Both the position numbers and the translations under genes were made by a program. Source: Candidatus Niyogibacteria bacterium (lineage in GTDB: Bacteria > Patescibacteriota > Minisyncoccia > HO2-45-28). From it: a DNA stretch of 64,000 nt. The stretch is from positions 63,961-127,960 of the forward strand of contig JACOYI010000002.1 in NCBI GenBank assembly GCA_016181935.1, read 5' to 3'. Positions within the stretch are counted from its first letter, which is position 1, and each line of letters starts with the position of its first letter. Below are positions 2,482-63,840 of this stretch, one piece after another. The notes under the pieces were generated by a model. It made no database searches and was not told the origin of the DNA. It worked only from the letters and a program-made list of their open reading frames with translations.

Positions 2482-3759
2482 CTATACCGATTTGAGCGCC
2501 TTTCGCACAACTTCGCGGTCGTCCCATGCGGTGCGGGAGCCATGCGGACCCATGATCCACGGCTCGCATCCCTTGCCCGTGATGATGACGACATCTCCCG
2601 CTTTTGCGTCATGAATCGCGCGCTCGATTGCCGTGCCGCGATCTAAAATTTTCACCGCCTTCGTCCCCGCGCCGACGCCCGTTTCAATTTCAAGTAAGAT
2701 TTTTTGCGGGTCTTCATCGTAAGGGTCTTCGTTCGTCAAAATCACTTCCGAGCAAAATTCGGATGCGATCTTCCCGAATTCGGGGCGCTTCCATTTGTCT
2801 CTGCCGCCGCCCGCCGCACCGAGCACGCAAATCAATTTTTTGCCTTTGAGCGCCTCGTATACTTTGTGGAGTGCGTCAGGCGTATGTGCATAATCCACGA
2901 TGACCGCGAACGGCTCCTTCTGAATGTATTCCATCCGTCCCGCGACCACATCCACTTTTTCAATGCCGCGCTTGATCTCGTCCCAGCCAATATTCATCGC
3001 GCGCGCGAGCGCGACGGCCGCTGCGATGTTGGCGAGATTGAATGCGCCTACGAGTTTGGAGCGGATTTCCATCCCTTGCGGGGTCAGAATCCGCATCCCA
3101 TCGTCCTCGAACGCAACCTCGTATTCCTTTGCGGAGTAGGTGATTTTTTTGTCGGCGTCGTAGCGCAGGAACCGGTCGCGCGATGCGTCATCCGCATTCA
3201 CCACCATCACTTTCGGGATTTCGTTTTTGCGATAGGTTTTTGAAAGCAATTTAAAAAGTTTTTCCTTCGCTCGGCGATATTTTTCAAACGAGCCGTGCGA
3301 TTCGATGTGTTCGGGCGTCACGTTCGTGAGCACGAGCGCATCCCACGCGATGGCGCGGTGGCGCGATTGGCGGATGCCCTCGGAGGTCGCTTCGAGCACC
3401 GCATGCGTCGCGTGTTCGCGCTTGGCATCGCGCAAAAACTTCTGGAGCGCTCCGCGGCCGGGCATCGTCATTTTGAGCGTGTTCGGCCATTCCTTATCAC
3501 CGATTTTGAACCGCACGGACGACACGGACGCGACTTTGAACCCCGCCTCCTCCAAAATTTTCACGATGAGCTCCACGGTCGTGGATTTCCCATTCGTCCC
3601 CGTGACGCCGATCACCGTCATCCCCCGCGAGGGATGCCCGTACCAAGCGGCGGCGAGCGCCGAAAGCGCTCCGTGGTAAAACGGCTGGGCAAAACGGAAA
3701 AGGGGCGCGGGAATGACCGGCCGGATGAGATCCCGAACCCTTGACATAAATCCATTCAC
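2482..3759 (-). CDS. murE: Mur ligase family protein (MurE-like UDP-MurNAc-tripeptide synthetase)
   Basis: P-loop GVTGTNGKSTT, DYAHTPDAL motif and Mur ligase middle/C-terminal architecture. At 425 aa it is shorter than canonical MurE, which may be lineage-specific. Confidence 0.7.
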   Translation of the reverse strand: MNGFMSRVRDLIRPVIPAPLFRFAQPFYHGALSALAAAWYGHPSRGMTVIGVTGTNGKSTTVELIVKILEEAGFKVASVSSVRFKIGDKEWPNTLKMTMPGRGALQKFLRDAKREHATHAVLEATSEGIRQSRHRAIAWDALVLTNVTPEHIESHGSFEKYRRAKEKLFKLLSKTYRKNEIPKVMVVNADDASRDRFLRYDADKKITYSAKEYEVAFEDDGMRILTPQGMEIRSKLVGAFNLANIAAAVALARAMNIGWDEIKRGIEKVDVVAGRMEYIQKEPFAVIVDYAHTPDALHKVYEALKGKKLICVLGAAGGGRDKWKRPEFGKIASEFCSEVILTNEDPYDEDPQKILLEIETGVGAGTKAVKILDRGTAIERAIHDAKAGDVVIITGKGCEPWIMGPHGSRTAWDDREVVRKALKSV

Positions 3760-3822: not shown

Positions 3823-4512
3823 ATGAAGCGACCGCTCACAATTCTTTTCGCGTTCGTGCTTATCGGATTTCCGATGACGGGGTTTGGGGATGGATATGCG
3901 CCGAAAGGTCCGTGGCGCGTAGTGGTGGCGGAACGAATTTCCTACGACGATTTGGGAAATTGGGAATACGAAGTGCCCGCGGAACTATGCGAGGAGGTCA
4001 TCCAGACAAACGTGCTGGAAAATTACCGTCGATGGTCTCATTCCTACGGTCCGTATGGCCCCTACACCGGAAGTTACAAATCATTTGCCGATTTTCTTTC
4101 GGACAAGATCTGGGGCCTCGACTATGATCATCTTCAAAGTCAAAATAGTCGGTATTACCACGTGGAAATGGTGGTGATCCTTGAAAACGCCGTGGTCAAT
4201 TCCGAGACCACCACCATCACATTGCCCATCGCCAATCCGGAAGAAGACGCGGAGATCCATCTATCGGTTTACTACGATGACCGGCGGTTTCCGATGCGGC
4301 TCGACATTACGGAAGGGGAGGTCCGTGGCGATGCTGCTTCCTCATCGACAGAAGCAAACCTGCTTGTCTGGGCGACCATGGAACAAAAGCCGGTCCTCAT
4401 TAAGGGGGTCGTTCGCATTCCCGAGAGCTACAACGGCATGGTCGAGCTCTTGGACGACATCCGCCATTCCCAGATCAAAATCTGCGCCGTAAGCGCGGTT
4501 TATTCCGAGTAG
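3823..4512 (+). CDS. Hypothetical secreted protein
   Basis: N-terminal signal peptide (MKRPLTILFAFVLIGFPMTGFG). An RBS-like GGAGAAGCC lies upstream. No recognizable domain. Confidence 0.5.
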   Translation: MKRPLTILFAFVLIGFPMTGFGDGYAPKGPWRVVVAERISYDDLGNWEYEVPAELCEEVIQTNVLENYRRWSHSYGPYGPYTGSYKSFADFLSDKIWGLDYDHLQSQNSRYYHVEMVVILENAVVNSETTTITLPIANPEEDAEIHLSVYYDDRRFPMRLDITEGEVRGDAASSSTEANLLVWATMEQKPVLIKGVVRIPESYNGMVELLDDIRHSQIKICAVSAVYSE

Positions 4513-4573: not shown

Positions 4574-4822
4574 TTAATAGGCCTTGCTCCGATGTTTTAT
4601 TCTATAAATTTTCACTTCCCTCCGCTTGTCGTCGATTTCGTAAATAACACGCAAATCGCCGATCCGAATCCGCCACGCATTCGGAGACCCGTGTAATTTC
4701 TTAGCGTTTGCGCGCGGGTTGTCGCGTAATTTCAAACAATAACGAATAACCCTCGAGCGCATCGACTTCTCGAGGGCATTCAAATCGCGCTCCGCGCGCC
4801 GCTCGATCAAAACTTTATACAC
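4574..4822 (-). CDS. Type II toxin, RelE/ParE family
   Basis: 82 aa basic protein (…KKLHGSPNAWRIRIGDLRVIYEIDD…) with RelE/ParE-like architecture. It overlaps the upstream antitoxin ORF by 8 nt. Confidence 0.65.
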   Translation of the reverse strand: MYKVLIERRAERDLNALEKSMRSRVIRYCLKLRDNPRANAKKLHGSPNAWRIRIGDLRVIYEIDDKRREVKIYRIKHRSKAY

Positions 4823-5027
4823 GCTCCCGGAGATACTCGCCTAGCGCGCGAAAAGAGGTTTTACCTCTCCGAATGCGGTGCAATTCCTGAAGGTCGCTTT
4901 TTTCTTCTGCCGCTCCTAACAACCGTTCATATTCTTTGATATCCAAAATGACGGATTTCGGCTTTCCGCCGCGAAGCACAATTTTAGGTTTTGCAATGAC
5001 ATTGGGCATAAACCAGTATGCTGGCAT
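4815..5027 (-). CDS. Type II antitoxin (Phd/YefM- or RelB-like)
   Basis: 70 aa ORF immediately upstream of and overlapping the RelE-like ORF. The KSVILDIKEYERLL segment resembles Phd/YefM antitoxins. Confidence 0.5.
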   Translation of the reverse strand: MPAYWFMPNVIAKPKIVLRGGKPKSVILDIKEYERLLGAAEEKSDLQELHRIRRGKTSFRALGEYLRERV

Positions 5028-5061
5028 TTCGACTAAAAATCAATCGTTTTTTAATTCCCGC

Positions 5062-5119
5062 CCACCGTCATCCCACGCGAGGGGTGGCCGTACCAATCCG
5101 CCAAGAGCTCGGCGAGAAG
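5062..5119 (-). pseudogene. Orphan duplicated fragment of the murE 5' coding end
   Basis: About 40 bp nearly identical to murE 3616-3659. On the minus strand it translates to LLAELLADWYGHPSRGMTVGGN*, compared with murE LSALAAAWYGHPSRGMTVIG. It is truncated by a stop and has no start. Confidence 0.55.
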
Positions 5120-5148
5120 GAGATGTGATGTCGATTTTAAAAACAAAA

Positions 5149-6151: not shown

Positions 6152-6194
6152 AGGATAGGCGCATTTAACGTCCGTTTGTCTTTAGTTGATGAAA

Positions 6195-6761
6195 CTACCT
6201 CCCCAACACTGCGAGAGCGGCTTTGATGCGGGCTTCGGCGCCTACGACATCCGACGACACTTTCGCGAGCGCATCTCTAGCTTCACGCAAAGAATACCCC
6301 AGTGCAGCGAGCGCTTCAAGCGCGTCCTCCTCATGGCGGAACTCGTCGGACGCCATCGTTTTGCCCATTTTTTCGCGAAGTTCAATGATGATTTTCTCCG
6401 CGGTTTTCCTCCCGATGCCAGATACCTTCGTGAGATAGCTCGTCTCCCCTCCCGCGATGGCTTTTTTCAACATATCGAGCGATGCCACGCCGAGCACGGA
6501 GAGGGCTGTGCGCGGCCCCACGCCCGATACGCTGTTCAACAAATCGAACAGATCAAGCTCGCCGTAGGTCAAAAACCCATACAATTCCTGCGCGTCCTCC
6601 CGCTGGCGGTGTGCCGTGTAGATTTTGACGGTGTCCCTGTTGTGTGGTATGGTTCGGAGCGTTTCGGGTCCTACGAACACTTTGTAGCCCACGCCGCCCG
6701 CCTCCAATATCAGGAAGCGCTCTCCTCGGAAGACGATTTTACCCTCCAAGCTGGCTATCAT
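6195..6761 (-). CDS. ruvA: Holliday junction DNA helicase RuvA
   Basis: N-terminal OB fold (MIASLEGKIVF...GVGYKVFV), HhH motifs and a C-terminal RuvB-interaction domain. Confidence 0.85.
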   Translation of the reverse strand: MIASLEGKIVFRGERFLILEAGGVGYKVFVGPETLRTIPHNRDTVKIYTAHRQREDAQELYGFLTYGELDLFDLLNSVSGVGPRTALSVLGVASLDMLKKAIAGGETSYLTKVSGIGRKTAEKIIIELREKMGKTMASDEFRHEEDALEALAALGYSLREARDALAKVSSDVVGAEARIKAALAVLGR

Positions 6762-6807
6762 CTTACTATTATAGTATATGTATATTCAATTTGTAATCAA
6801 AATGTAC

Positions 6808-6849
6808 TTCTAACACATTCCTGACGGCCGTCAGGAATGTGTTAGAAGA
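6808..6849. promoter_or_regulatory. 42-bp perfect palindrome in the ruvA/uvrB divergent promoter region
   Basis: CTTCTAACACATTCCTGACGG|CCGTCAGGAATGTGTTAGAAG lies between divergent DNA-repair genes. It is a candidate operator. Confidence 0.4.
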
Positions 6850-6863
6850 CAAAACGCCATTTC

Positions 6864-8852
6864 ATGAACCGATTTAAACTCCACTCACCCTACCAGCCGA
6901 CCGGAGACCAGCCCGCCGCCATCGAAAAGCTCGCGGCGGGTATTCGCGCGGGCAAAAAGCACCAAACACTCTTGGGCGTGACGGGCTCCGGTAAGACCTT
7001 CACAATGGCCAATGTCATCGAGAAGCTCAATCGCCCTGCGCTCGTCATTTCGCATAACAAAACGCTCGCCCTCCAGCTGTATCAGGAGTTCAAGGAATTT
7101 TTCCCACTAAACGGCGTCCACTATTTCGTCTCGTATTACGACTACTACCAGCCCGAGGCCTACCTCCCCACCACCGACACCTATATCGAAAAAGACGCGA
7201 AAATCAACGACTTCATCGACCGCCTGCGCCACGCGACCACCGCCTCCGCGCTCACGCGGCGCGATTTTGTGATTTGCGCATCCGTGTCCTGCATTTACGG
7301 CTTGGGCGATCCGGAGGAATACGAAAATGTCGCGCTCGAATTGCGCGTCGGGCAAACGATGAAACGAAAGGATTTAACCGAGCGCCTCGCCGACCTGTAT
7401 TACGAACGCAATGACACCGAATCGCCTGCCTCGCCGTTTGGCGGGCGCTACGGCACCTTCAGCGCCAAAGGTGATGTGATTTCCATTGCGTCCCCCGACG
7501 GCGCCACCATCACCGAAATTGAACTCCTTGGCGACAAAATCGACGCGATGCGGGAATACAAAAACGACATCCACCGCTCGGGTGAACGCGCCATTGAATC
7601 CAAACACTTCTTCCCCGCCAAACATTTCGTCACGCCGAAGGATAAATTGAAAGTCGCGATGGCGAATATCCGCACCGAGCTCGCCACGCGCCTCACCGCG
7701 CTCAAAAAAGCGGGCAAAATCCTCGAGGCCGCGCGGTTGGAACAGCGCGTGAATTTTGACCTCGAAATGCTCGAGACCACGGGCTATGTGTCGGGCATCG
7801 AAAATTATTCGCGCCAGTTGTCGTTCCGCAACGCGGGCGAGCCGCCGTTCACATTATTGGATTATCTCCCCGACGATACGCTCGTCATCATCGACGAATC
7901 CCACATGACCGTCCCGCAGATCGGCGGAATGTACGCGGGCGACCAAGCGCGCAAAAATGTTCTTGTGGATTACGGGTTCCGTTTGCCCTCTGCGCTCGAC
8001 AACCGGCCGCTCAAATTCGCGGAGTTCGATGAAAAAGCGGGACAGCGCGTGTATGTGTCCGCCACGCCCGCGCAGTATGAAATTGACGCGTCAGGTCCGG
8101 ATGGAATCGCGGAACAGCTCATCCGCCCCACCGGACTCCTCGACCCCGTCATCGAAATCCGCCCCGCGCGAAATCAATTAAAAGATGTGGAACAGGAAAT
8201 CGCAAAATGCGTCGCCGCGGGCGAGCGCGCGCTCGTCGTGACGCTCACCAAGCGCCTCGCCGAGGATATCGCCGCGCATTTCAAGGACGCCGGCATCAAA
8301 GCCGAATACATGCACTCGGAAATCAAAACGCTTGAGCGCGGCAAAATTTTGGAAAAATTGCGCCGCGGCGAAATTGACGTCCTCATCGGCATCAACCTGC
8401 TCCGCGAAGGGCTCGATTTGCCGGAAGTGGCGCTCATCGCCATTCTCGACGCGGACAAAGAAGGATTTTTGCGCAATGAAACTTCATTGATTCAAACCAT
8501 CGGCCGCGGCGCGCGCCATCCGAAAGGCCGCGCGATTCTCTATGCCGATATTGTGACGGGCTCGATACAGCGCGCGCTCGATGAAACCAACCGTCGCCGC
8601 AAAATTCAGGAGGACTATAACCGCGAGCACGGCATCACGCCGACCGCGGTCATCAAGCCCATCCGCGCACCGTTGTTGGAAGAGGAAAAAGACAAGCGCG
8701 ACCCCGTCGGCGCGCTCGTGAAAGATTTGTACGAAACGCTTAAGGACCATGACGCGGTCAAAGCCGAACTCGAACGTCAAATGCTCATCGCCGCCGACGA
8801 ACTCCGCTTCGAAGACGCCGCGCGATTGCGGGATGTGCTGGGAACGCTATAA
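6864..8852 (+). CDS. uvrB: Excinuclease ABC subunit B
   Basis: 662 aa with Walker A GVTGSGKT, helicase motifs and the C-terminal UvrB/UvrC interaction helix (...ADELRFEDAARLRDVLGTL). Confidence 0.95.
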   Translation: MNRFKLHSPYQPTGDQPAAIEKLAAGIRAGKKHQTLLGVTGSGKTFTMANVIEKLNRPALVISHNKTLALQLYQEFKEFFPLNGVHYFVSYYDYYQPEAYLPTTDTYIEKDAKINDFIDRLRHATTASALTRRDFVICASVSCIYGLGDPEEYENVALELRVGQTMKRKDLTERLADLYYERNDTESPASPFGGRYGTFSAKGDVISIASPDGATITEIELLGDKIDAMREYKNDIHRSGERAIESKHFFPAKHFVTPKDKLKVAMANIRTELATRLTALKKAGKILEAARLEQRVNFDLEMLETTGYVSGIENYSRQLSFRNAGEPPFTLLDYLPDDTLVIIDESHMTVPQIGGMYAGDQARKNVLVDYGFRLPSALDNRPLKFAEFDEKAGQRVYVSATPAQYEIDASGPDGIAEQLIRPTGLLDPVIEIRPARNQLKDVEQEIAKCVAAGERALVVTLTKRLAEDIAAHFKDAGIKAEYMHSEIKTLERGKILEKLRRGEIDVLIGINLLREGLDLPEVALIAILDADKEGFLRNETSLIQTIGRGARHPKGRAILYADIVTGSIQRALDETNRRRKIQEDYNREHGITPTAVIKPIRAPLLEEEKDKRDPVGALVKDLYETLKDHDAVKAELERQMLIAADELRFEDAARLRDVLGTL

Positions 8853-8940
8853 TCCCGCCGCCAGCTTGACAATCCATCTCATCTTTGGTATTCACAAACA
8901 AGCAGCTCGTTAAAAATCGCCACGGAATAAGGAGATAAGC

Positions 8941-9513
8941 GTGGACCGGCAAAAAGCCCAAGAGATCGTGGATGCGGCTATTCGGTTGCCGCTGTCGGAA
9001 CTTCTATATACGGCGGAGGAGATCGAGGAGGCGGTCCGAGCGAACACGACGGAAGTTTTCAATCGAATTCCGGAAATTGAAAATGCGCAAAAAGAATACA
9101 GGGAATCACTTCTTCGCGAGGCAACAATACAGCACAAAATAAAGAGGCTTTTGCTACGGGCAGGATTTCGCCCCTATAACGGCTGGACTCTAAATGGTCT
9201 GGAAGTGATGTGTACCAAGACCGCGAGCGTAGGCGAAGACCCCAGATACGACAAACCAAAACACATAGCAATCGTAAGGCCGAGGCGCTTTGTTACAAGA
9301 CCTCGGGATAAATGGATTGGATTGATTCATCTCTCCGAAAAATCGAATGAAATTCTTATAGAAATATTCGGGTCAAGAAATATTGCCGCGATCGCCGATA
9401 TATCAGAAAAAATCAGGCAGCAAATGAACCTTTCGGTTCGTTGTGATCTGGTGCTGAGAAAAGAGAAGGAGCTCGATGGAGATTGGATTGATGTTTGTAA
9501 AACAGGCCCCTAA
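8941..9513 (+). CDS. Hypothetical protein, paralog A (shares an N-terminal ~40 aa module with the 10706 gene)
   Basis: GTG start after an AGGAGA RBS. The N-terminus MDRQKAQEIVDAAIRLPLSELLYTAEEIEEAVRANTTEVF is about 85% identical at the DNA level to the start of 10706..11050. The remainder is low-GC. Confidence 0.5.
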   Translation: MDRQKAQEIVDAAIRLPLSELLYTAEEIEEAVRANTTEVFNRIPEIENAQKEYRESLLREATIQHKIKRLLLRAGFRPYNGWTLNGLEVMCTKTASVGEDPRYDKPKHIAIVRPRRFVTRPRDKWIGLIHLSEKSNEILIEIFGSRNIAAIADISEKIRQQMNLSVRCDLVLRKEKELDGDWIDVCKTGP

Positions 9514-9540
9514 AAACAAGGCTTAGCCTGCGGAGCGCAC

Positions 9541-9834
9541 ATGAAAAAAGCTCTAAAATGGGCGACGATTTTCTTTGTTGCGGCAACGTTTTCGATCTGG
9601 CTTGCCGGATTCGTTGATCCACAGATCAGCGATTTCTACTCGCGTCATATAACAAAATTCGGTTTCCTGTTTAAATTCGAACTCTACGGCACGCGCCGTG
9701 ACGGCCGCGGGAAAGCAAAAGCGCAAAAATCACTACACCGCCGGAAGAACGATCGCCAGCATACGCCCTCTCACGATAGAGAGGGTATTTTTATTGGGCG
9801 ACACCGAAACATCGCACGCGCGCTTGACACATAG
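9541..9834 (+). CDS. Hypothetical small membrane protein
   Basis: 97 aa with one TM (WATIFFVAATFSIWLAGFV) between paralog A and pspA. Weak evidence. Confidence 0.25.
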   Translation: MKKALKWATIFFVAATFSIWLAGFVDPQISDFYSRHITKFGFLFKFELYGTRRDGRGKAKAQKSLHRRKNDRQHTPSHDREGIFIGRHRNIARALDT

Positions 9835-9975
9835 CGAGCCAATATGTTATTCAAGCGGTGTCCCTTAAAAACCATTCGGTCCAACCTTCCTAAAAGGAGT
9901 GCAGACGTGCTTACCACCATTCTGGTCATCGCCGGTCTCGCCCTATTCTTGGGCAGTACGTATCGGACCCGATTC

Positions 9976-10695
9976 ATGCGAGTCGTGCGTTCGCATATCG
10001 GCGCCTTGATACGCCGGGCGGAAAATCCGGAGAAAATGATCGAGCATGCGTTGACAGAGATGACCGGCGCCTATCACCAAGCGCGAGAGCAAACGGCGCT
10101 TGCGATCGCCGCACAGAAGAAGATGGCGCGCCAGCTCGAGGAAGAGCAAACCGAAACCCAGCGCTGGATGGAGCGGGCGCGTCTGGCTGTGAACAAAAAT
10201 GATGACGACCTGGCCCGCGAAGCGCTCCGGCGCAAGCAGGAACATGCGACCGTGGCCCTGCAAATCGAGAGCCAACTTGTGCATTACAGCGCCCACGTCG
10301 AAAGCTTGAAGAGCGCGCTGGACGATCTCGAGCGAAAGATCGAGGAAGCGAGGCGGCGGAAAAATCTTCTCGTCGCGAAACAACGGCGAGCCGAGGCGCA
10401 GGATCGGATCTACGCCACCATGAACGGCATCCAGAACGAAGGCGGCCTCGAGCTGATCGAACGGATGGAACAGAAGATCGATGAAATATGCGATGCCGCG
10501 GATGCGCGCATCGATCTGAAATCCGAAAAAGAAAAACTGGAGATCCGATTCCAGCAGCTCGAATCCGTGGATGTCGAAACGGAACTCTCCCTGCTCAAGA
10601 ACCGGCGCGCGATCGAGTACAAGCCGGTGGAATCGCCCGTTCCCGAGCTCGACATGATTCGGGAAAAGTCGCCGCTCGCGGTAAAGCCCGCCTAA
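9976..10695 (+). CDS. pspA: PspA/IM30 family protein
   Basis: Starts ...RRAENPEKMIEHALTEM, the canonical PspA N-terminus, and has a long coiled coil. The ORF could extend upstream to 9844 with an added TM segment, but the canonical start fits 9976. Confidence 0.75.
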   Translation: MRVVRSHIGALIRRAENPEKMIEHALTEMTGAYHQAREQTALAIAAQKKMARQLEEEQTETQRWMERARLAVNKNDDDLAREALRRKQEHATVALQIESQLVHYSAHVESLKSALDDLERKIEEARRRKNLLVAKQRRAEAQDRIYATMNGIQNEGGLELIERMEQKIDEICDAADARIDLKSEKEKLEIRFQQLESVDVETELSLLKNRRAIEYKPVESPVPELDMIREKSPLAVKPA

Positions 10696-10705
10696 GGAGA
10701 CCCTG

Positions 10706-11050
10706 ATGGACCTGCAAAAAGCCCAAGAGATTGTGGATGCGTGCGTCACGCTTCCGTTGTCGGAACTTCCGTATACGGCGGAGGAGATCGAGGCGGCGGT
10801 ACGAACAAACGCAACCAACAGTATCACCCGGAATACGCCGAAGAAAATAGGAGTTTTTGAATCCATGTTGGCACATATAATGCCAAAATTTCCGAAAATA
10901 TTTTTAGTCTGCGGTTTATTGGCCGGTTTCGGAGCTTTTTTGTCGCCAATCTCACCGCTCTTTTTTCTCGCGTTTGCTTTACCATACGTAGGGCTCATGG
11001 TGACAGTCATACTTCTTGGAATCTGTGAGGAAATGCTGCGCTGGTGGTAA
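10706..11050 (+). CDS. Hypothetical membrane protein, paralog B (shared N-terminal module)
   Basis: N-terminus MDLQKAQEIVDACVTLPLSELPYTAEEIEAAVRTN followed by 2-3 TM helices. It sits immediately after pspA and is a possible PspA membrane partner. Confidence 0.5.
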   Translation: MDLQKAQEIVDACVTLPLSELPYTAEEIEAAVRTNATNSITRNTPKKIGVFESMLAHIMPKFPKIFLVCGLLAGFGAFLSPISPLFFLAFALPYVGLMVTVILLGICEEMLRWW

Positions 11051-11123
11051 AACCAGGTATGAAATAATGCGATCATTCTTAACATAAAAACTGCGCAATG
11101 CCTATTGCGTGGTTTTTTAATTG

Positions 11124-11168
11124 TTCGGCCTCGAGGACGCCGCGCGGTTGAGGAATGTGCTGGGGACG
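11124..11168 (+). pseudogene. Orphan duplicated fragment of the uvrB 3' end
   Basis: Translates to EDAARLRNVLGTL*, compared with uvrB C-terminus EDAARLRDVLGTL*. It is about 85% identical to 8808-8852 and has no upstream ORF. Confidence 0.55.
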
Positions 11169-11184
11169 CTGTAAAAAAAGAAAA

Positions 11185-11219
11185 ACCGCCAAGCCGTTTT
11201 TTATTTTTGGCTTGGCGGT
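11185..11219. terminator. Stem-loop terminator after the orphan uvrB tail
   Basis: ACCGCCAAGCC-(T-rich loop)-GGCTTGGCGGT with an upstream A-tract. This is probably the ancestral uvrB terminator. The U-tract geometry fits minus-strand or bidirectional use. Confidence 0.45.
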
Positions 11220-11440
11220 ACTGTTGTGTCGCCCGCTTTGTTCTTTCCGGAGCTGTGGCGCGCCGCGTGCCCGGAAATATCCCTGTCGCTCATTCCCTAG
11301 ACCGGGAAACGTCTTTGGGAATGCCGGCTGTCTCGCCTTCCGCCAGGTTCCGCCGGAACGAACTCTGACAAGGGCAGTATAGCGCGTATCTGTAAACCCA
11401 AGGGCTTCGGTGATGACCCCAAAAGCGCCTTCAAAAGGCC

Positions 11441-11469
11441 TTGTGTTTAAATAAAAACTACCCTATAGT
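11441..11469 (+). promoter_or_regulatory. Sigma70-like promoter for rpsT (near-leaderless)
   Basis: TTGTGT, a 17 nt spacer, then TATAGT, ending about 9 nt before the rpsT ATG. Confidence 0.4.
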
Positions 11470-11478
11470 ACTGGAAAC

Positions 11479-11733
11479 ATGCCGATTACCACTTCAGCCA
11501 AAAAAGCCCTGCGACAGGCGGAGCGCCGCCGCGTCCGAAACCTTAAACGCAAGGATGCGATCGTTTCCGTTGTCCGCAAAATCAAAAAGTTCGTGATAGC
11601 CGGCAAAAAAGAGGAGGCACGCTCACTCCTCCCGCAGGCCTACAAAGCCCTCGACAAGGCGGCCCAGCGCAATGTCATCCACAAAAACGCCGCGGCCCGC
11701 AAAAAATCCCGCCTGACCCAGTTCGTCGGTTGA
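11479..11733 (+). CDS. rpsT: 30S ribosomal protein S20
   Basis: 84 aa basic protein MPITTSAKKALRQAERRRVRNLKRK..., typical bS20. Confidence 0.85.
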   Translation: MPITTSAKKALRQAERRRVRNLKRKDAIVSVVRKIKKFVIAGKKEEARSLLPQAYKALDKAAQRNVIHKNAAARKKSRLTQFVG

Positions 11734-12989: not shown

Positions 12990-13553
12990 TTAAAAATTCT
13001 CCGTCAGATTTTTTAATGTTTCTGTGTGACCGTCCCGGTCTAAAATTTCCCATGCGCGAATATAGTGCGGATCACGAACTCTTTTCCTTACCTTTTCTAA
13101 CCGCTCCTTATCAAATAATTTTTCCAAAACGGCAACCTGAACAGCATAAACTGGAATATGGGCTTTGGTCATTTGTGGCTCTCCTCGATATCGCGCCATA
13201 AATTTCATCCATCCTTCTTTGATTTGACCCCAATTCTCGGTAAAAATTCGGTGAATCAATTCATGCGTGAGCGTATCAATGTCGCTTTTCAATGTAAGCG
13301 TGACCGGATCAGAAAAGTTAACGCTTCCGGCGATGATATAACAAACAATTTCTTTTTCCTGCCATTGCAGTTTCGTTGCTTCCGCAATTTCCTGAAGAAT
13401 TTCTTCGCCATCCTTCGCCCATCCCCCCTCTATCTCCTGAATTTTTTCGGCGAAAATATCCTCTGGCGGCATTTCAAAACCCTCTTTTTTTATAAGAGCG
13501 CGGTCATAGAGCAGCGATCTTCGAAAAAACAACACGGGTAAATTTTTTTTCAT
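12990..13553 (-). CDS. Hypothetical protein with an HExxH motif
   Basis: 187 aa containing LTHELIHRIF, a putative zinc-metallopeptidase-like motif. It lies in an operon between polA and holA. Confidence 0.45.
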   Translation of the reverse strand: MKKNLPVLFFRRSLLYDRALIKKEGFEMPPEDIFAEKIQEIEGGWAKDGEEILQEIAEATKLQWQEKEIVCYIIAGSVNFSDPVTLTLKSDIDTLTHELIHRIFTENWGQIKEGWMKFMARYRGEPQMTKAHIPVYAVQVAVLEKLFDKERLEKVRKRVRDPHYIRAWEILDRDGHTETLKNLTENF

Positions 13554-13562
13554 ATCTACTTA

Positions 13563-15962
13563 TTAGACGATCTTTTTTAATTCCGCCCAGTTCGGGCCCG
13601 CGCTCACCTCCACCGCGAGCGGAATATCGTCTTTGTAAACGCCTTCCATTTCCTGCTTAATGAGCGTCGCCGCCTCTTTTACGGCAGAATCCTCGATCTC
13701 GAACAAGAGTTCGTCGTGGATCTGCAGAACCATCCGCACTTTTTTACCAAGCCCCGCTTTCGCGAGCGCCGGATGCAGTCGTACCATCGCTTTTTTTATC
13801 ATATCCGCCGCACTCCCCTGAATGGGCGCATTGATGGCCATGCGCAGATATTCGTGATGCATGTATTCGGGCATGGTCTGCAATTCCGGAAAATACCGCC
13901 GCCGCCCGAAAAGCGTGGTCGTATATCCGTTTTCGGCCGCCTCGCGCTTCACCTCCTCGATATATTCTTTCACGCGCCCAAAATCGTGGAAATATTTATC
14001 ATAGAATTCGCGCGCCTTTTCCTGCGTCACACCCAAGCTCTCGGCAAGCGCGCGTACGCCCATACCGTACAAAATCCCGAAATTGATGGTCTTGGCGGCA
14101 TAGCGCATATCCTTGGTAACGTTTTTGATATCGACATGGAACATCGCGGCGGCGGTTGCCGTATGAATATCGCGCCCCGCGAGAAACGCCTCTTTCAGAA
14201 TCGGATCATCCGACAAAATCGCGGCGATGCGCAATTCGATCTGCGAATAATCCGCGGCAACGAGTGTCCAACCAATAGGGGCGACAAATGCCTTGCGGAC
14301 CTCGCGACCGAGCTCGGTTCGGATGGGAATATTTTGCAGATTCGGATTCTCGGACGAAAAACGGCCGGTCACGGTCCCCGCCTGATTGAGCGTCGTGTGC
14401 ACCCGTCCTTCCGCATCCGCAAGCGCGGGAAGCGCATCGATATAGGTGGATTTCAGTTTTGCGAGCTCGCGGTATTGCAATATCAGCTCCACAATCGGAT
14501 GCGCGCTCTTCAGTTTTTCAAGCTCTGAGGCATTCGTCGAGAGCGCGCCCTTGCCGGTTTTGCGGATGCCTTTCGCGCTCAACTTCAATTGATTGAACAA
14601 AATATCGGACAATTGCTTGGGCGAATTGATGGTGAATTCCGTCCCTGCGAGTTCCCAGATCTTTTTCTCGAGCTCCGCGATTTTCTTTTCGTAGATTTTC
14701 GACATCCCTCCGAGATAGTCGCGATCGATCATCGTGCCGGCGCGGTGCATCTCATCCAAAATACCGATGAGCGGCAATTCGGTTTTTTCAAAAAATTCCA
14801 GCAGGCCTTCTTTTGCGAGTTCCGCGCGAAAATGCCCGAGCGCCGCCTCCGGTGTACTCGCCCCGGCGATGCGCATCGCTTCGTCCGGCGCGATGCCGAC
14901 GCGCCGCGAATCGAGGAGCCATGCCGCAACGGCAAGCTCCCGCGCAATTTTAGGATCATGCGCTTCCGAAGGCGCGAATAATTCCTGTGTTCCGCTTTCC
15001 GGCCTGCCCGCCGACCCGCGCTCCGCCGTAGGCTCTGGCGAGGCGAGAGCTCCAGCGAAGGAGGGCAAACGTGCGATCAAACTCGTGAATCCAAGCGCGC
15101 GAAAAAGCGGCTCGACAGCGCCGCGCTCGAATTGCTTCCACTCGGCGTCTTTTAGATCGAATTCGACGGGCGCGTCGCGGCGGATGGTGCTAAGTGTTTT
15201 GGAAAATAGTGCATCCTCCGATCTCTCGCGGAGCAATCCCGCCATCCGGTCTTTGATGCCCGCCGCCTTCAGTTTTTCCGGTTTTGTTTTCGCGAGCTTT
15301 ACAATATCCTCCACCGAACCGAATTTTTGAACGAGGATTTCCGCGGTTTTTTCGCCAATGCCCTTCACCCCCGGAATGTTGTCCGACGGGTCGCCGCGCA
15401 ACCCTTTGTAATCCGGCAATAATTCGGGGCCGAATCCGAACCGTTCGCGCACCGCTTTTTCATCATAAATAAAACTTTCGTTCCCCTTTTTGAGCGTCCA
15501 GACGCGCACGCGCGTCGAATCCACCAATTGCAATGCATCGAGGTCGCCCGATGCGATGATGATGGAAAGATTTTTCTCTTTTTTCAGCTTTTCAACGATG
15601 GTGCCGACGATGTCATCCGCCTCGAATCCGGCCTTTTCCAGCAACGGAATATGGAATGTTTCGACGATCTCGCGCGAACGCGCGAATTGTGAAATGAGCG
15701 CGGGTTCGGCCTCCGGCCGCTGGGCTTTGTATTTTTCGTAAGCCGCATGGCGGAACGTGGGCTCCGGAAGATCGTTCGCCGCGACCAAATAGTCGGGTTT
15801 GAATTCCTTCGCGATGCGAAGGATCGTCGTCGTCAATCCGTAGAGCGCGCCGGTCGGCTCGCCCGACGGCGACGTGAACGGCGGCAATGCGTGATACGCG
15901 CGATGTAGGATCGCGTGCAGATCGAGAATGACGAGCGTTTTGTTTTTAGATTTAGAACTCAT
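13563..15962 (-). CDS. polA: DNA polymerase I
   Basis: 799 aa with an N-terminal 5'-3' exonuclease/FEN domain and C-terminal family A polymerase motifs (…RRYAAKTINFGILYGMG…, QIHDELLFE). Confidence 0.95.
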   Translation of the reverse strand: MSSKSKNKTLVILDLHAILHRAYHALPPFTSPSGEPTGALYGLTTTILRIAKEFKPDYLVAANDLPEPTFRHAAYEKYKAQRPEAEPALISQFARSREIVETFHIPLLEKAGFEADDIVGTIVEKLKKEKNLSIIIASGDLDALQLVDSTRVRVWTLKKGNESFIYDEKAVRERFGFGPELLPDYKGLRGDPSDNIPGVKGIGEKTAEILVQKFGSVEDIVKLAKTKPEKLKAAGIKDRMAGLLRERSEDALFSKTLSTIRRDAPVEFDLKDAEWKQFERGAVEPLFRALGFTSLIARLPSFAGALASPEPTAERGSAGRPESGTQELFAPSEAHDPKIARELAVAAWLLDSRRVGIAPDEAMRIAGASTPEAALGHFRAELAKEGLLEFFEKTELPLIGILDEMHRAGTMIDRDYLGGMSKIYEKKIAELEKKIWELAGTEFTINSPKQLSDILFNQLKLSAKGIRKTGKGALSTNASELEKLKSAHPIVELILQYRELAKLKSTYIDALPALADAEGRVHTTLNQAGTVTGRFSSENPNLQNIPIRTELGREVRKAFVAPIGWTLVAADYSQIELRIAAILSDDPILKEAFLAGRDIHTATAAAMFHVDIKNVTKDMRYAAKTINFGILYGMGVRALAESLGVTQEKAREFYDKYFHDFGRVKEYIEEVKREAAENGYTTTLFGRRRYFPELQTMPEYMHHEYLRMAINAPIQGSAADMIKKAMVRLHPALAKAGLGKKVRMVLQIHDELLFEIEDSAVKEAATLIKQEMEGVYKDDIPLAVEVSAGPNWAELKKIV

Positions 15963-16078
15963 TTCAAAAATGTTATGAACCGAGCGCGTGCCGTTAAAAA
16001 GGGCTTTCGGAGCGCGACGGCGCGAGAACGAGCCGATTTTTCAGCAGAAGCGGCATGCGGGAGGGTAATTTTTGAAAT
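15955..16078. repeat. IR-flanked intergenic repeat element, copy 1 (core shared with 35088-35150)
   Basis: 17-bp terminal inverted repeats GAACTCATTTCAAAAAT / ATTTTTGAAATGAGTTC. The core TCGGAGCGCGACGGCGCGAGA…GATTTTTCAGCAGAA…CGGCATGCG recurs at 35088-35150. Confidence 0.5.
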
Positions 16079-61430: not shown

Positions 61431-61456
61431 TTATGGATGTTTGATAAGATAAGATT

Positions 61457-62368
61457 GTGCGACGCATAGATATACAAGCCCTCTATAGAAATTACCTCGA
61501 ATACTTGGAGATCGAGCGGGGGCGGAGCTTGAAAACGCTCGATAATTACGGGCACTATATTTCGGCGTTTCTTGAATTTGCGAAGGCGAAGACGCCAGAC
61601 GATATCACCGAGGACGGCGTGCGGGAGTTTCGGATGCGGCTCAACCGCGCGAATCTCAAGCGCCGGACGCAAAACTACTATCTTATAGCACTCCGCGGAT
61701 TCCTGAAGTATCTGGCCAAGCGCGGGGTTCCGAGTTTGGCGCCCGAAAAGATCGAACTGGCCAAGGTGCCGGAGCGCGAATTCGACTTGATTAGTGACGA
61801 CGAATTGGGGCGTCTGCTCGCCTCCCCCAACGGGTCGGACGCGAAAAGCATGCGCGACCGCGCACTCTTTGAATTGTTGTTTTCGACGGGATTACGGGTT
61901 TCGGAGCTCTGTTCGCTCAATCGGGATTCGATCAATCTCTCGCGCGGCGAGTTCAGTGTGCGCGGAAAAGGCGAAAAAGTGCGCGTGGTATTTTTGTCGG
62001 ACAGCGCGCGCGATGCTCTTAAGGGGTGGCTCGATAAGCGGAAGGATATGAGCGAAGCATTGTTTACGAATTTCCGGCGCGGCGCAAAAGACGAACTGGA
62101 TGAAAAAGCGCGGCTTACCTCCCGCTCGGTGGAGCGCATCATCAAGTTTTATGCGGTAAAGGCGGGCATCTCGAAAAAGGTCACGCCGCACGTATTGCGG
62201 CATTGTTTTGCGACCGATCTTTTGCAAAACGGCGCGGATTTGCGTTCGGTGCAGATGCTCTTGGGCCATGCGAATGTGGCGACGACGCAAATTTATACGC
62301 ACATCACGAACCGGCAGTTAAAAGATATTCATCAAGCGTTCCATGGGAAAAAAAGAAGGGCGAATTGA
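61457..62368 (+). CDS. Tyrosine recombinase (XerC/XerD family)
   Basis: GTG start. N-terminal core-binding domain and catalytic R…HxxR…Y pattern (VLRHCFATDLL…LLGHANVATTQIYTH). It is divergent from the Cys-rich gene across about 26 bp. Confidence 0.85.
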   Translation: MRRIDIQALYRNYLEYLEIERGRSLKTLDNYGHYISAFLEFAKAKTPDDITEDGVREFRMRLNRANLKRRTQNYYLIALRGFLKYLAKRGVPSLAPEKIELAKVPEREFDLISDDELGRLLASPNGSDAKSMRDRALFELLFSTGLRVSELCSLNRDSINLSRGEFSVRGKGEKVRVVFLSDSARDALKGWLDKRKDMSEALFTNFRRGAKDELDEKARLTSRSVERIIKFYAVKAGISKKVTPHVLRHCFATDLLQNGADLRSVQMLLGHANVATTQIYTHITNRQLKDIHQAFHGKKRRAN

Positions 62369-63654: not shown

Positions 63655-63726
63655 GCTCTCGTGGTGAAATGGATATCACGGCTGCCTTCGAAGCAGTTAT
63701 TGGGGGTTCGAATCCCTCCGAGAGCA
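63655..63726 (+). tRNA. tRNA-Arg (anticodon TCG)
   Basis: Cloverleaf: acceptor GCTCTCG/CGAGAGC, D-arm GTGA…TCAC with a GG loop, anticodon stem GCTGC/GCAGT with loop CTTCGAA, T-arm GGGGG-TTCGAAT-CCCTC. Discriminator A; CCA is not encoded. Confidence 0.85.
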
Positions 63727-63840
63727 CAAAATTGCTATAGTAATTTTGTGCTCGAAGAGCGAGCCAACTGCTTGGCTCGCGCGAGGATTCGAAGGGTTGA
63801 GCGATGCGCGAGGCGCCGCGAAACTCCGGATTTTGCGTAG

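Follow-up and report, generated by a model that had tools for sequence, protein, structure and literature searches.

Diverged copies of the uvrB gene end flank a pspA cassette in a genome of the Patescibacteria

Insertion with long target duplication (Nobusato/Furuta/Kobayashi, PMC2853133) is characterized by small blocks without mobility genes that lie between direct repeats some tens to hundreds of bp in length. In a relative with an empty site the repeat has a single-copy counterpart, and it sometimes overlaps the 3' end of a gene; the hosts are mostly naturally competent bacteria and the cargo is of the addiction type, the same process having been proposed for restriction-modification gene complexes (PMC2853133). 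Insertion within the 3' end of a protein-coding gene is known also from e14 and phage 21 in icd, in which a replacement end is supplied and the displaced icdC fragment remains at the far junction (PMC13626634). The CIMEs of streptococci occupy the 3' ends of fda and of genes for tRNAs or ribosomal proteins. They are integrase-less, possess att repeats that hold the gene end and undergo tandem accretion; they represent decayed ICEs or IMEs, and integrase-bearing kin use the same site in other strains (PMC5704250). In T4-type phages, short repeats lying by promoters and terminators flank small non-essential genes, and homologous recombination moves the modules in what is called PeSL-mediated shuffling, with the formation of mini-circles (PMC2839356). 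Hotspots of horizontal gene transfer devoid of mobile elements, finally, occur between core genes, where gene turnover is tied to homologous recombination and natural transformation (PMC5635113).

The locus presented here lies in a stretch of 64,000 nucleotides from a Candidatus Niyogibacteria genome, hereafter called the window, the relevant features of which are listed in table 1. The uvrB gene of the window ends with ...RFEDAARLRDVLGTL*, and its last codons are found again 2.3 kb downstream, in register, as ...GLEDAARLRNVLGTL* with the stop codon at 11172-11174. This second copy, the orphan tail, is outside any longer open reading frame because another stop lies 17 codons upstream. The two copies form a direct repeat of 50 nt with 84% identity (blastn E = 3e-9 against the 64-kb window), so that the 3' end of the target gene is present at both junctions of the cassette, and the proximal copy keeps the uvrB frame complete. 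The preliminary description of this DNA had placed the orphan at 11124-11168 with about 85% nucleotide identity; formal alignment establishes that the duplication is real and of nearly that identity, but the coordinates were a few bases short.

The genomes considered are metagenome bins, and Logan contigs break at 8798 and 11277-11306, implying strain heterogeneity around the cassette; both points would fit an artefact, either a misassembled mixture of strains or a chance similarity. This we find scarcely credible, because several samples, assembled independently, have both tails on one contig: the Logan contig L161 shows this for the window type, being 100% identical to positions 8798-11306, and L163 and L164 show it for a type with three tails (see below). 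Of the two tails, one is present on each of the window-type contigs L162, L178 and L179, and the distal part of the three-tail type is covered by L176. Besides the low E value of the repeat and the 0 matches obtained with controls, analogous cases (L013, L019, L008 and L077) come from other studies and assemblers.

Table 1. Position and basis of the features at the uvrB-rpsT locus, in window coordinates
Feature	Position	Strand	Basis or remark
uvrB, target gene, 662 aa	6864-8852	+	ORF; Pfam UvrB, Helicase_C, UvrB_inter, UVR
Functional uvrB tail, proximal 50-nt repeat copy, last ~16 codons and stop	8803-8852	+	Repeat search
P1, promoter-like site at left cassette edge	8866-8894	+	TTGACA (8866-8871), 17 nt, TATTCA (8889-8894)
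parA, 190 aa, function unassigned	8941-9513	+	ORF
orf97, possible small membrane protein	9541-9834	+	ORF; gene call also in Logan contig
P2, promoter-like site before pspA, putative start of second transcription unit	9824-9853	+	TTGACA, 18 nt, TATTCA
pspA, PspA/IM30 family, 262 aa, start GTG at 9907	9907-10695	+	Pfam PF04012; Logan gene call
parB, 114 aa	10706-11050	+	ORF
Intrinsic-terminator-like hairpin with T-run, cassette end	11086-11117	+	14 pairs, then TTTTT; -14.7 kcal/mol
Orphan uvrB tail, distal repeat copy, ...LEDAARLRNVLGTL*, non-coding	11125-11174	+	Repeat search
12-bp GC-rich hairpin 3' of orphan	11185-11220	.	Folding, -23.1 / -21.1 kcal/mol
rpsT, ribosomal protein S20, conserved right-hand neighbour of uvrB	11479-11733	+	Pfam PF01649, 4e-23; synteny

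The block between the tail copies (8853-11124, 2.3 kb) holds two transcription units, parA-orf97 and pspA-parB. The cargo had been described as two paralogs flanking pspA, which is confirmed for parA, pspA and parB; the additional frame orf97 also lies there, although its 3' half is doubtful because it contains a terminator-like hairpin (9765-9786 plus T-run). PspA, a membrane-stress protein correctly recognized in the preliminary description, is the sole one among the four proteins encoded by the cassette with a match in Pfam, to PF04012 (2e-36; 125.9 bits, the gathering score being 33.9; profile positions 5-216 of 220). It has a hydrophobic N-terminal extension, and its nearest homologue is that of the co-occurring strain L163 (57%), followed by matches of 48-52%, among which the two with names given by their source are not from Patescibacteria. 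The parA protein has no match in Pfam, PADLOC or PHROG, and two matches in 5.8 billion proteins, namely itself and a 77% homologue in L163. The N-terminal part of parB, which has a hydrophobic C-terminus, is paralogous to parA (BLASTP 6e-18), the similarity being limited to the first ~37 residues; the corresponding DNA repeat (8928-9050 / 10693-10815) is 79% identical. The GC skew changes sign across the cassette.

As previously noted, no terminator follows the uvrB stop; instead, promoter-like P1 begins 13 nt past it. Consensus scanning missed P1, which is therefore proposed from its conservation, since it recurs ahead of the pspA cassette of both L163 (80-110) and L001 (9308-9337); the hexamers of P2 are identical to those of P1. 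The hairpin 3' of the orphan (stem about 11185-11196 / 11209-11220), which has no Rfam family at gathering score, had been considered a stem-loop terminator. It is indeed a strong hairpin, but no U-run is present on the plus strand and the run UUUUUCUUUUUUU is on the minus strand, so that it is questionable whether it terminates uvrB. Where the site is empty, genomes usually have no terminator at all, and the -35 box of rpsT overlaps the uvrB stop; of the order once expected in relatives (uvrB tail, terminator, rpsT), the adjacency is common and the terminator usually missing.

Comparison with about 160 uvrB loci included a scan of 158 loci for second copies of their own tail and a survey of gap sizes in 66. 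The order ruvA(-)/uvrB/rpsT/holA(-) is conserved, and the gap between uvrB and rpsT is <150 nt in 32/66 loci and at least 400 nt in 29/66, with cargo that is unrelated; pspA, parA and parB are absent from all 80 loci of GTDB species representatives. The closest available relative, L001, has a UvrB 96% identical to that of the window and only 90% identity in DNA. It carries other cargo at the uvrB end: behind a single tail come HicAB-like genes, a truncated fragment resembling uvrB, a P1-type promoter and a pspA remnant. In L163, three tails bracket pspA-parA, HicAB-like genes and then three small ORFs before rpsT, and this type was found in three samples (L163, L164 and, for its distal part, L176) with a cassette order unlike that of L001. 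The L163 tail preceding HicAB best matches the functional tail of L001 (48/54 nt), which also precedes HicAB. Tails are single-copy in relatives, and neither a circular intermediate nor an empty-site haplotype was recovered from the samples of the window.

The scan returned four second copies with at least 8/14 identical residues and the stop in register, against none in a control 3.3-fold larger, and tblastn added the orphan of L077 (36 bits versus 25 for the best control). Own-tail orphans in other Patescibacteria thus occur in L013, with PemK/MazF and RHH (MazEF) as cargo, in L019, with a GIY-YIG gene, and without cargo in L008 and L077. Taken together, these comparisons support the putative insertion of a cassette at the uvrB end. 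In Patescibacteria, insertions recur at the junction of uvrB and rpsT, and serial events build arrays in which a tail copy stands between one cassette and the next. The original proposal of an insertion into the uvrB 3' end that brought a replacement tail has therefore held up, considering the frequent adjacency of uvrB and rpsT, the different cargo of L001, the tail-bracketed cassettes elsewhere and the mainly synonymous differences presented below. As in the HGT hotspots mentioned earlier, a single interval between core genes concentrates turnover with no recognizable mobile elements; duplicated core-gene ends between the acquired genes, however, are not described in those hotspots (PMC5635113).

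Differences between the tail copies are mostly synonymous. The last 14 codons of the window copies show five synonymous versus one non-synonymous codon differences (P=0.07 over 48 nt), the latter being specific to the orphan. The corresponding values are 4 and 0 in L013 (P=2e-4), 11 and 6 in L019 (26 nt differences, P<5e-5; 16/22 residues kept) and 6 and 5 in L008 (P=0.005), while the orphan of L077 keeps 17/18 residues with 15/54 nt different. Moreover, the L013 orphan shows at 5/5 variant sites the states found in functional tails of other Giovannonibacteria. It follows from the synonymous bias that the copies would be alleles of different uvrB genes, not decayed local duplicates. Divergence between the copies had previously been read as the sign of an old event, but this bias places most of it before the insertion, in separate lineages with working gene ends, and the intact frame and stop of the orphan argue for a fairly recent event.

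The same data bear upon a true target duplication, according to which some 50 nt of target would be copied in place by the insertion process, the copies then diverging locally. Such a process would agree with the published class, which has repeats of 30-420 bp, lacks mobility genes and is found for the most part in species with natural competence (PMC2853133). It would also agree with L027, where a small cassette stands between two copies of the uvrB 5' end that are 100% identical over 60 nt. Yet a neutral orphan should gain mostly non-synonymous changes, which is not the case for L019, L013 and L077, and the L013 variants that are alleles of other species suggest xenologous tails; we thus regard in-place copying as improbable. 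Slightly more improbable still is a spread by homing, in which a nuclease would cut cassette-free uvrB ends and repair would copy the cassette along with a recoded, cleavage-immune tail. The free-standing GIY-YIG gene of L019 does lie between two heavily recoded tails, and an immunity copy would be expected to show recoded, synonymous-only differences; nevertheless, neither the window cassette nor most others contain a nuclease, and double-strand-break repair alone leaves no second copy of the target end.

More serious consideration is due to site-specific integration, by which the tails would be the attL and attR of small CIME-like cis-mobilizable elements whose integrase was lost or never existed, with a tyrosine or serine recombinase supplied in trans (e.g. 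by a related full-size element or the host Xer) and arrays formed by tandem accretion. The architecture is identical to that of integration at gene 3' ends, such as e14 in icd with icdC (PMC13626634), and to that of CIME accretion (PMC5704250). In addition, every orphan has its left boundary 14-33 codons before the stop, a clustering that a fixed recombinase target could explain equally well, and one gene for an Xer-type tyrosine recombinase lies in the window, 50 kb from the cassette with no motif nearer. At variant sites on the left-hand side the functional tail of the window agrees with relatives, whereas the orphan does so on the right-hand side; this mosaic would fit a reciprocal crossover here as well as under the host recombination preferred below, and is suggestive, though only suggestive, of an exchange near repeat position 23-27.

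Against this possibility, a regular-expression search of about 158 loci found no tyrosine-recombinase motif up to about 4.8 kb away from uvrB, and motif scanning combined with ORF reading found no integrase-bearing element in their uvrB-rpsT gaps, nor an integrase in or near any tail-bracketed cassette. Inspection of the gap ORFs by eye, with Pfam applied to a subset, revealed no recombinase-like ORF besides the IS1595 transposase of L033, which has no flanking tails. The screen, consisting of motif and ORF reading, has limited sensitivity, and its motif is that of tyrosine recombinases. No viral contig matches the tail pattern, the cassettes share no edge motif apart from the tail itself, and the cargo-less L008 and L077 resemble allele replacement. 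Furthermore, the phenomenon extends to other gene ends: the 5' end of a Mur ligase gene is duplicated in the window and in L001 with a ParE/Phd pair, and the 5' end of uvrB is duplicated not only in L027 but also in L090, with a methylase and a MutH-like nuclease (a putative R-M pair). Duplication at such unrelated ends argues against an integrase specific for uvrB. We consequently deem site-specific integration unlikely, and the earlier analogy with integrative elements is not supported for a cassette devoid of integrase or any other recombinase, the motif scan having found none in or beside comparable cassettes of about 158 loci either.

Our preferred reading, held with moderate confidence, is that an accessory cassette lacking an integrase was inserted exactly at the uvrB stop by host recombination in the conserved gene end, its tail being imported and the resident one displaced. 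The two units of the cassette, P1-parA-orf97 and P2-pspA-parB, would each have their own promoter-like site as well as a terminator-like hairpin, and the incoming DNA would bring its own copy of the last ~15-17 uvrB codons. A crossover inside the conserved stretch would complete uvrB with a partly foreign tail and leave the other recombinant copy downstream as a non-coding orphan; joining would most likely be accomplished by the host machinery, not by a dedicated site-specific recombinase. Three routes could lead to this outcome: (a) a single Campbell-type crossover in the tail of a circular molecule made of tail and cassette; (b) a double crossover with linear donor DNA already so arranged, the uvrB body forming the left arm and the orphan tail a short right arm; or (c) a founding event that combined a homologous crossover in uvrB with illegitimate joining shortly before the resident stop. 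The duplicated piece would always reach the stop because only such events keep uvrB intact under selection, which in many lineages may also retain the rpsT -35 box. The cargo, PspA here and toxin-antitoxin (TA) pairs or GIY-YIG nuclease elsewhere, would represent small self-stabilizing or stress modules that hitch-hike in such sites. A tail homology of 45-100 nt with 80-90% identity is short for RecA-dependent exchange, which counts against host recombination, as do the negative results for a circular intermediate and an empty-site haplotype.

Among the known systems, long target duplication and gene-end replacement of the e14/icd type come nearest to the proposed insertion. The locus agrees with the long-target-duplication class in several features: it is a block below 20 kb without mobility gene between direct repeats longer than 30 bp, the repeat corresponds to the single-copy tail of relatives, and the R-M pair of L090 recalls the cargo of that class (PMC2853133). 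It departs from it in having PspA with unassigned partners, or TA pairs or GIY-YIG elsewhere, as cargo, in having repeats that are diverged alleles, up to three of them arrayed at one gene end, and in its Patescibacteria host. An origin of the repeat as duplicated sequence of the recipient itself is ruled against by the synonymous-biased divergence and the orphan variants matching other species. As in e14, a conserved gene end is replaced, the old end is left as a fragment and the ends differ largely by synonymous changes; e14, however, is a prophage of 15 kb that encodes an integrase and excises upon SOS induction, unlike the 2.3-kb cassette in which no recombinase was found. An integrase-encoding island or prophage would fit the repeats and the empty site, but not the absence of an integrase gene from the cassette. 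Similarly, CIMEs share with this site arrays having one repeat between successive blocks (three tails and three blocks in L163, L164 and L176), whereas motif and ORF reading found no counterpart of their integrase-bearing kin at the same site in about 158 loci. PeSL modules of single genes are inserted, deleted and circularized without dedicated recombinase, comparable to the recombinase-free insertion proposed here, but their repeat is a regulatory unit in a phage genome, whereas the present one is coding sequence from the end of a core gene on the chromosome of the bacterial host. An integron array can be discarded, given that there is no intI, the repeats are a coding end rather than attC-like palindromes and the cassettes have their own promoters and terminators.

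Bacteria of the Candidate Phyla Radiation have tiny genomes with few recognizable mobile elements, lack genetic tools and differ between strains by many small accessory genes. The uvrB locus offers a concrete entry route for such genes, which insert where a conserved core gene ends and bring a copy of that end along. Several lineages appear to have used it repeatedly: TA, nuclease and PspA modules entered at the 3' end of uvrB, and a putative R-M pair at its 5' end. For insertion with long target duplication, the synonymous divergence indicates that the 'duplication' may have been imported and not copied in place. It is possible, though we propose this only tentatively, that Patescibacteria own a recombinase-free cassette system in which addiction, defence and stress modules travel with a gene-end copy as portable homology arm and are inserted by RecA after DNA uptake in related genomes, giving integron-like arrays spaced by gene-end alleles. 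If true, such a system would also explain how long target duplications come about, for which a mechanism has been missing. Duplicated gene ends would also provide a cheap marker of recent horizontal acquisition in metagenome bins, and they point to a way of designing targeted insertions for uncultivated lineages with natural competence.

The uvrB gene of the window, which encodes every domain expected of it, the C-terminal UVR motif among them, is followed by a second, non-coding copy of its own 3' end, hereafter the orphan tail, on the far side of a 2.3-kb cassette. The source is a Candidatus Niyogibacteria (Patescibacteria) genome bin, in which parA is NCBI HYT22_00645 on a 130-kb contig. 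A repeat search of the window returned the two tails as a 50-nt direct repeat with 84% identity, and blastn against the whole window gave E = 3e-9; the similarity pointed out in the preliminary description thus survives formal alignment. The orphan tail is in register with the functional one through the stop codon (ending in LEDAARLRNVLGTL and stop), and reading-frame inspection found no longer ORF that contains it. Between the copies lie parA, the doubtful orf97, pspA and parB, and the previously proposed identity of PspA is borne out by a match to PF04012 (2e-36). The part shared by parA and parB is limited to the ribosome-binding region and the first ~37 codons, and parA, orf97 and parB have no match in PADLOC or PHROGs. 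From its promoter-like sites and hairpins, the block is organized as two predicted transcription units, parA-orf97 and pspA-parB. An origin by tandem duplication was rejected on the order of the elements (tail-parA...parB-tail) and the differing spacings of the two repeat families (1765 vs 2322 nt).

Positions of features in the window and in compared loci
Feature	Sequence	Position	Remark
Palindrome	window	6807-6848	ruvA/uvrB intergenic region
uvrB	window	6864-8852	plus strand
Functional tail	window	8803-8852	
Unit 1 promoter	window	8866-8894	TTGACA-17-TATTCA
parA	window	8941-9513	unit 1
orf97	window	9541-9834	unit 1
Hairpin and T-run	window	9765-9795	end of unit 1
Unit 2 promoter	window	9824-9853	TTGACA-18-TATTCA
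pspA	window	9907-10695	unit 2
parB	window	10706-11050	unit 2
Terminator	window	11086-11117	end of unit 2
Orphan tail	window	11125-11174	stop 11172-11174
GC-rich stretch	window	11175-11436	
Orphan hairpin	window	about 11185-11220	
187-aa ORF	window	12990-13553	missing from L001
Mur-ligase duplication	window	3608-3658 and 5058-5125	with 2482-3759, 3823-4512, 4574-5027
Xer-type recombinase	window	61448-62365	
tRNA-Arg (TCG)	window	63655-63727	
Mur-ligase start, doubled	L001	3095-3137 / 5014-5055	
Gene-sized indels	L001	548-1864, 3176-3679	
uvrB start, doubled	L090	2521-2595 / 4942-5016	
uvrB start, doubled	L027	5157-5216 / 6152-6211	
-35 box in orphan tail	L013	10560-10610	TTGCGT
Direct repeat	L165 (also L166)	4297-4335 / 5106-5143	39 nt
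Direct repeat	L059	15458-15578 / 15868-15988	121 nt

Both tails are also present on one Logan contig that was assembled independently and matches 8798-11306 without a difference. In several runs, unitig-style contigs (L161, L162, L177, L178 and L179) begin or end at shared positions, namely 8798, in the functional tail (its left half), and 11277-11306, ~100 nt past the orphan hairpin; these common ends indicate co-existing haplotypes that diverge at the two places. Run SRR12113383 holds the window type together with a type having three tails (L163, see below), and the aquifer samples containing the two types comprise this run, SRR12113384, SRR12113430 and SRR12113422. Look-ups with rpsT and parB for an empty-site haplotype or a circular junction recovered only the window arrangement, with contig breaks at these same positions.

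The structure 3' of the orphan tail, earlier described as a stem-loop terminator, is indeed a strong hairpin (-23 kcal/mol), but the plus strand has no U-run, whereas that on the minus strand is perfect. It opens a 260-nt GC-rich stretch reaching to the rpsT promoter, which is unmatched in all fetched loci and in Rfam families and may represent either a small RNA on the minus strand or a cassette in decay. The minus-strand fold of 11175-11445 is not convincing (z = -1.96), and Rfam, run on the whole window and on 11050-11500, returned only one distant tRNA and one sub-threshold chance match. The region between the divergent ruvA and uvrB genes holds, right before the uvrB start, a perfect 42-nt palindrome (21-nt arms, spacer-free) that may serve as an operator or as a terminator in both directions.

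We compared the uvrB-rpsT junction in a GTDB scan with one genome per species, which gave 80 uvrB loci, all Patescibacteria-like. The order ruvA(-), uvrB(+), rpsT(+), holA(-) is kept in most of these; among the 66 loci in which rpsT follows uvrB, the gap is below 150 nt in 32 and at least 400 nt, with unrelated genes inside, in 29. Adjacency of the two genes without the cassette, as had been anticipated, is thus common, but the terminator expected between them is as a rule absent from short-gap genomes, in which the rpsT promoter reaches with its -35 box into the final uvrB codons or the stop. None of the 80 loci contains pspA, parA or parB; moreover, the sign of the GC skew flips across the cassette and the nearest PspA homologue outside the lineage is ~50% identical, the two such matches with a named source being non-Patescibacteria. 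These results and the variable filling of the gap mark the cassette as an acquired insert and the junction as a hot spot of repeated insertion. A metagenome scan with the C-terminal half of UvrB yielded only generic UvrB matches of ~55% (the patterns being universal motifs) and no close relatives, and an exact look-up of the window UvrB in the assembly index gave no record. The gap measures 3-45 nt in L003, L009, L011, L014, L016, L022, L028 and other loci with the -35 box overlapping the uvrB end, one example reading CTTGCGTAA-17 nt-TAAGAT with the ATG 6-8 nt further on; such a promoter would imply a near-leaderless rpsT mRNA.

The closest relative, L001, has a UvrB 96% identical to that of the window in amino acids (90% in nucleotides) and a single functional tail, 3' of which lie a minus-strand HicA/HicB-like pair and a ~25-nt fragment resembling uvrB 8757-8780, followed by the same promoter as that before parA, a 101-aa remnant that has the N-terminal helix of PspA, and rpsT. 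The single homologue of parA among 5.8 billion proteins is on L163, a contig found in three sequencing runs (L163, L164 and L176), in which every block is bracketed by uvrB-tail copies: the uvrB end (ELRFEDAARLRDALKTL and stop), a promoter, pspA, the parA homologue and a terminator precede a second tail (ELRFEDAAQLRDVMKML and stop), HicA/HicB-like genes, a third tail (LAADELRFEDTARLRDVVKMF and stop), three small ORFs and rpsT. The pspA and HicAB blocks are thus in reversed order in L001 and L163. Since the L163 tail before HicAB finds its best match in the L001 functional tail before HicAB (48/54 nt), the mobile unit would seem to be a tail plus the cassette to its right. Sliding third-codon-position identity between the window and L001 uvrB shows no clear recombination breakpoint: the last ~400 nt score 0.66 vs ~0.80, and another internal stretch is equally low. 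The genes common to the window and L001 are 80-90% identical in nucleotides, and many small indels of gene size lie between conserved genes; several of these indels are toxin-antitoxin pairs (HicAB, ParE/RelE-like), and a 187-aa ORF of the window is also missing from L001.

To extend the comparison, 158 loci were searched downstream of uvrB, each for a second copy of its own tail. At the nucleotide level (at least 32/45), L013, of the Giovannonibacteria, has a 40/45 copy, with none in a 3.3-fold larger control; at the peptide level (last 14 residues, stop in register, at least 8/14), the window, L013, L008 and L019 were retrieved and the control gave zero. L077 was added by tblastn (36 bits, best control 25). 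The tails enclose an RHH antitoxin and PemK/MazF toxin (2e-30) with their own promoter in L013, a 79-aa GIY-YIG nuclease (1e-15) in L019, and only 41 nt (L008) or ~100 nt (L077), each including a hairpin. In all cases the left edge of the orphan lies 14-33 codons before the stop and its right edge is the stop. Insertion with a replacement tail is therefore supported as recurrent in multiple lineages.

The differences between tail copies are biased toward synonymous changes, as judged from the chance P that random mutation keeps as many residues. Synonymous and non-synonymous codons number 4 and 0 in L013 (P = 2e-4), 11 and 6 in L019 (26 nt differences, 16/22 residues kept, P <5e-5), 6 and 5 in L008 (P = 0.005), and 5 and 1 in the last 14 codons of the window (P = 0.07 over 48 nt); in L077, 17/18 residues are kept with 15/54 nt different. 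Furthermore, each orphan-specific base of L013 also occurs in functional tails of other Giovannonibacteria. Judging from these patterns, the copies must be alleles that diverged mostly as working gene ends in different lineages, and the foreign tail came in with the insert. The divergence, previously taken as the sign of an old event, does not date the insertion; an orphan whose frame and stop are still intact rather suggests that it is fairly recent. In the window core, the sole non-synonymous change (D to N) is orphan-specific, and at variant sites the functional tail agrees with relatives on the left and the orphan on the right. A reciprocal crossover around repeat position 23-27 would give such a mosaic, yet seven informative sites make this no more than suggestive. 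In a comparison meant to tell the resident tail from the foreign one, the two copies were equally distant, within 1-3 nt, from the tails of sister genomes.

The same signature appears at other gene ends. The minus-strand Mur-ligase gene of the window has 51 nt of its 5' coding region repeated as an orphan (5058-5108) 1.45 kb away, with a ParE/Phd toxin-antitoxin pair and a 229-aa ORF in between; the 33-aa N-terminus of the window protein is missing in the L001 orthologue, the N-terminus of the latter runs on into the window orphan flank, and L001 has its own orphan of this gene start. In L090, two copies of the first 75 nt of uvrB (84% identical) enclose a LexA-fused N6/N4 methylase and a MutH-like nuclease, and directly upstream lie an HTH gene and a reverse transcriptase; in L027, two copies of the first 60 nt (100% identical) enclose ~1 kb that encodes an RHH protein and includes small ORFs. 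On an unrelated metagenome contig (L165, L166), direct repeats 85% identical and outside any evident coding region flank a HicB/HicA pair, and neighbouring genes are bracketed by other short repeats. One copy of the L059 direct repeat (88% identical) forms the 3' end of a 232-aa gene on the minus strand, and the other is an orphan ~290 nt past the stop of this gene; the pair may be another cargo-free gene-end duplication.

The architecture matches the integrative element initially proposed, but a search for the corresponding machinery was negative. The cassette has no recombinase gene (Pfam), no tyrosine-recombinase motif occurs within ~4.8 kb of uvrB in ~158 loci, and no integrase was seen among ORFs of the uvrB-rpsT gap (read by eye, with Pfam on a subset), which include one IS1595 transposase (L033) without tail repeats. 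The only tyrosine recombinase of the window is Xer-type (Phage_int_SAM_1 plus Phage_integrase), 50 kb from the cassette. Apart from the tail, no motif is common to the cassette edges, and a degenerate tail pattern, meant to detect an attP-like copy on a phage or plasmid, gave 0 matches in viral contigs. Integron and Xer/dif-type readings were rejected, since attC-like palindromes are absent and the tail, judged by eye, does not resemble dif sequences. The single tRNA gene of the window, tRNA-Arg (TCG), is 1.3 kb away from the Xer-type gene.

A serious rival is an integrase acting in trans, as in the CIME model, whose accretion the arrays resemble; however, no integrase-bearing occupant was found in the ~158 loci by motif scan and reading of ORFs, and the signature is spread over unrelated gene ends. 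A mechanism tied to one att site would not account for this spread, while host recombination would. Given the duplications at the Mur-ligase and uvrB 5' ends and the recombinase not found, we favour insertion by the host recombination machinery at conserved gene ends. It could proceed by a Campbell-type single crossover with a circular tail-plus-cassette molecule, or by a double crossover with linear donor DNA, the nested arms being the uvrB body and the orphan tail. In founding events, a crossover in uvrB by homology would probably be accompanied by an illegitimate join shortly before the resident stop, and the cargo-free L008 and L077 look like such events. Selection would retain only insertions that leave uvrB complete and the rpsT promoter in place; in L013, the TTGCGT -35 box is kept by the orphan tail only, the functional tail having lost it.

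Among known systems, e14 in icd, which leaves icdC behind, has the same architecture of gene-end integration with a replacement end (PMC13626634), and CIME accretion gives similar arrays (PMC5704250), but both are defined by a recombinase or a related integrase-bearing occupant, and neither turned up in the search made here. Of the published classes, the best fit is "insertion with long target duplication", comprising gene blocks without mobility genes between 30-420-bp flanking repeats that sometimes overlap a gene 3' end, mostly in naturally competent species (PMC2853133). Our case is set apart by its cargo, its host phylum, arrays with multiple repeats, and repeats that on the evidence were imported as alleles and not duplicated in place. 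The PeSL mini-circles of T4-type phages offer a mechanistic analogue of recombinase-free module shuffling (PMC2839356), and MGE-free hot spots between recombining core genes provide the genomic context (PMC5635113); a literature search for uvrB as integration site returned nothing relevant. Insertion with a replacement tail, as first suggested, is supported by empty uvrB-rpsT sites, tail-bracketed arrays and allelic tail copies. If true, a recombinase-free "portable homology arm" mechanism would raise the importance of the cassette beyond moderate.
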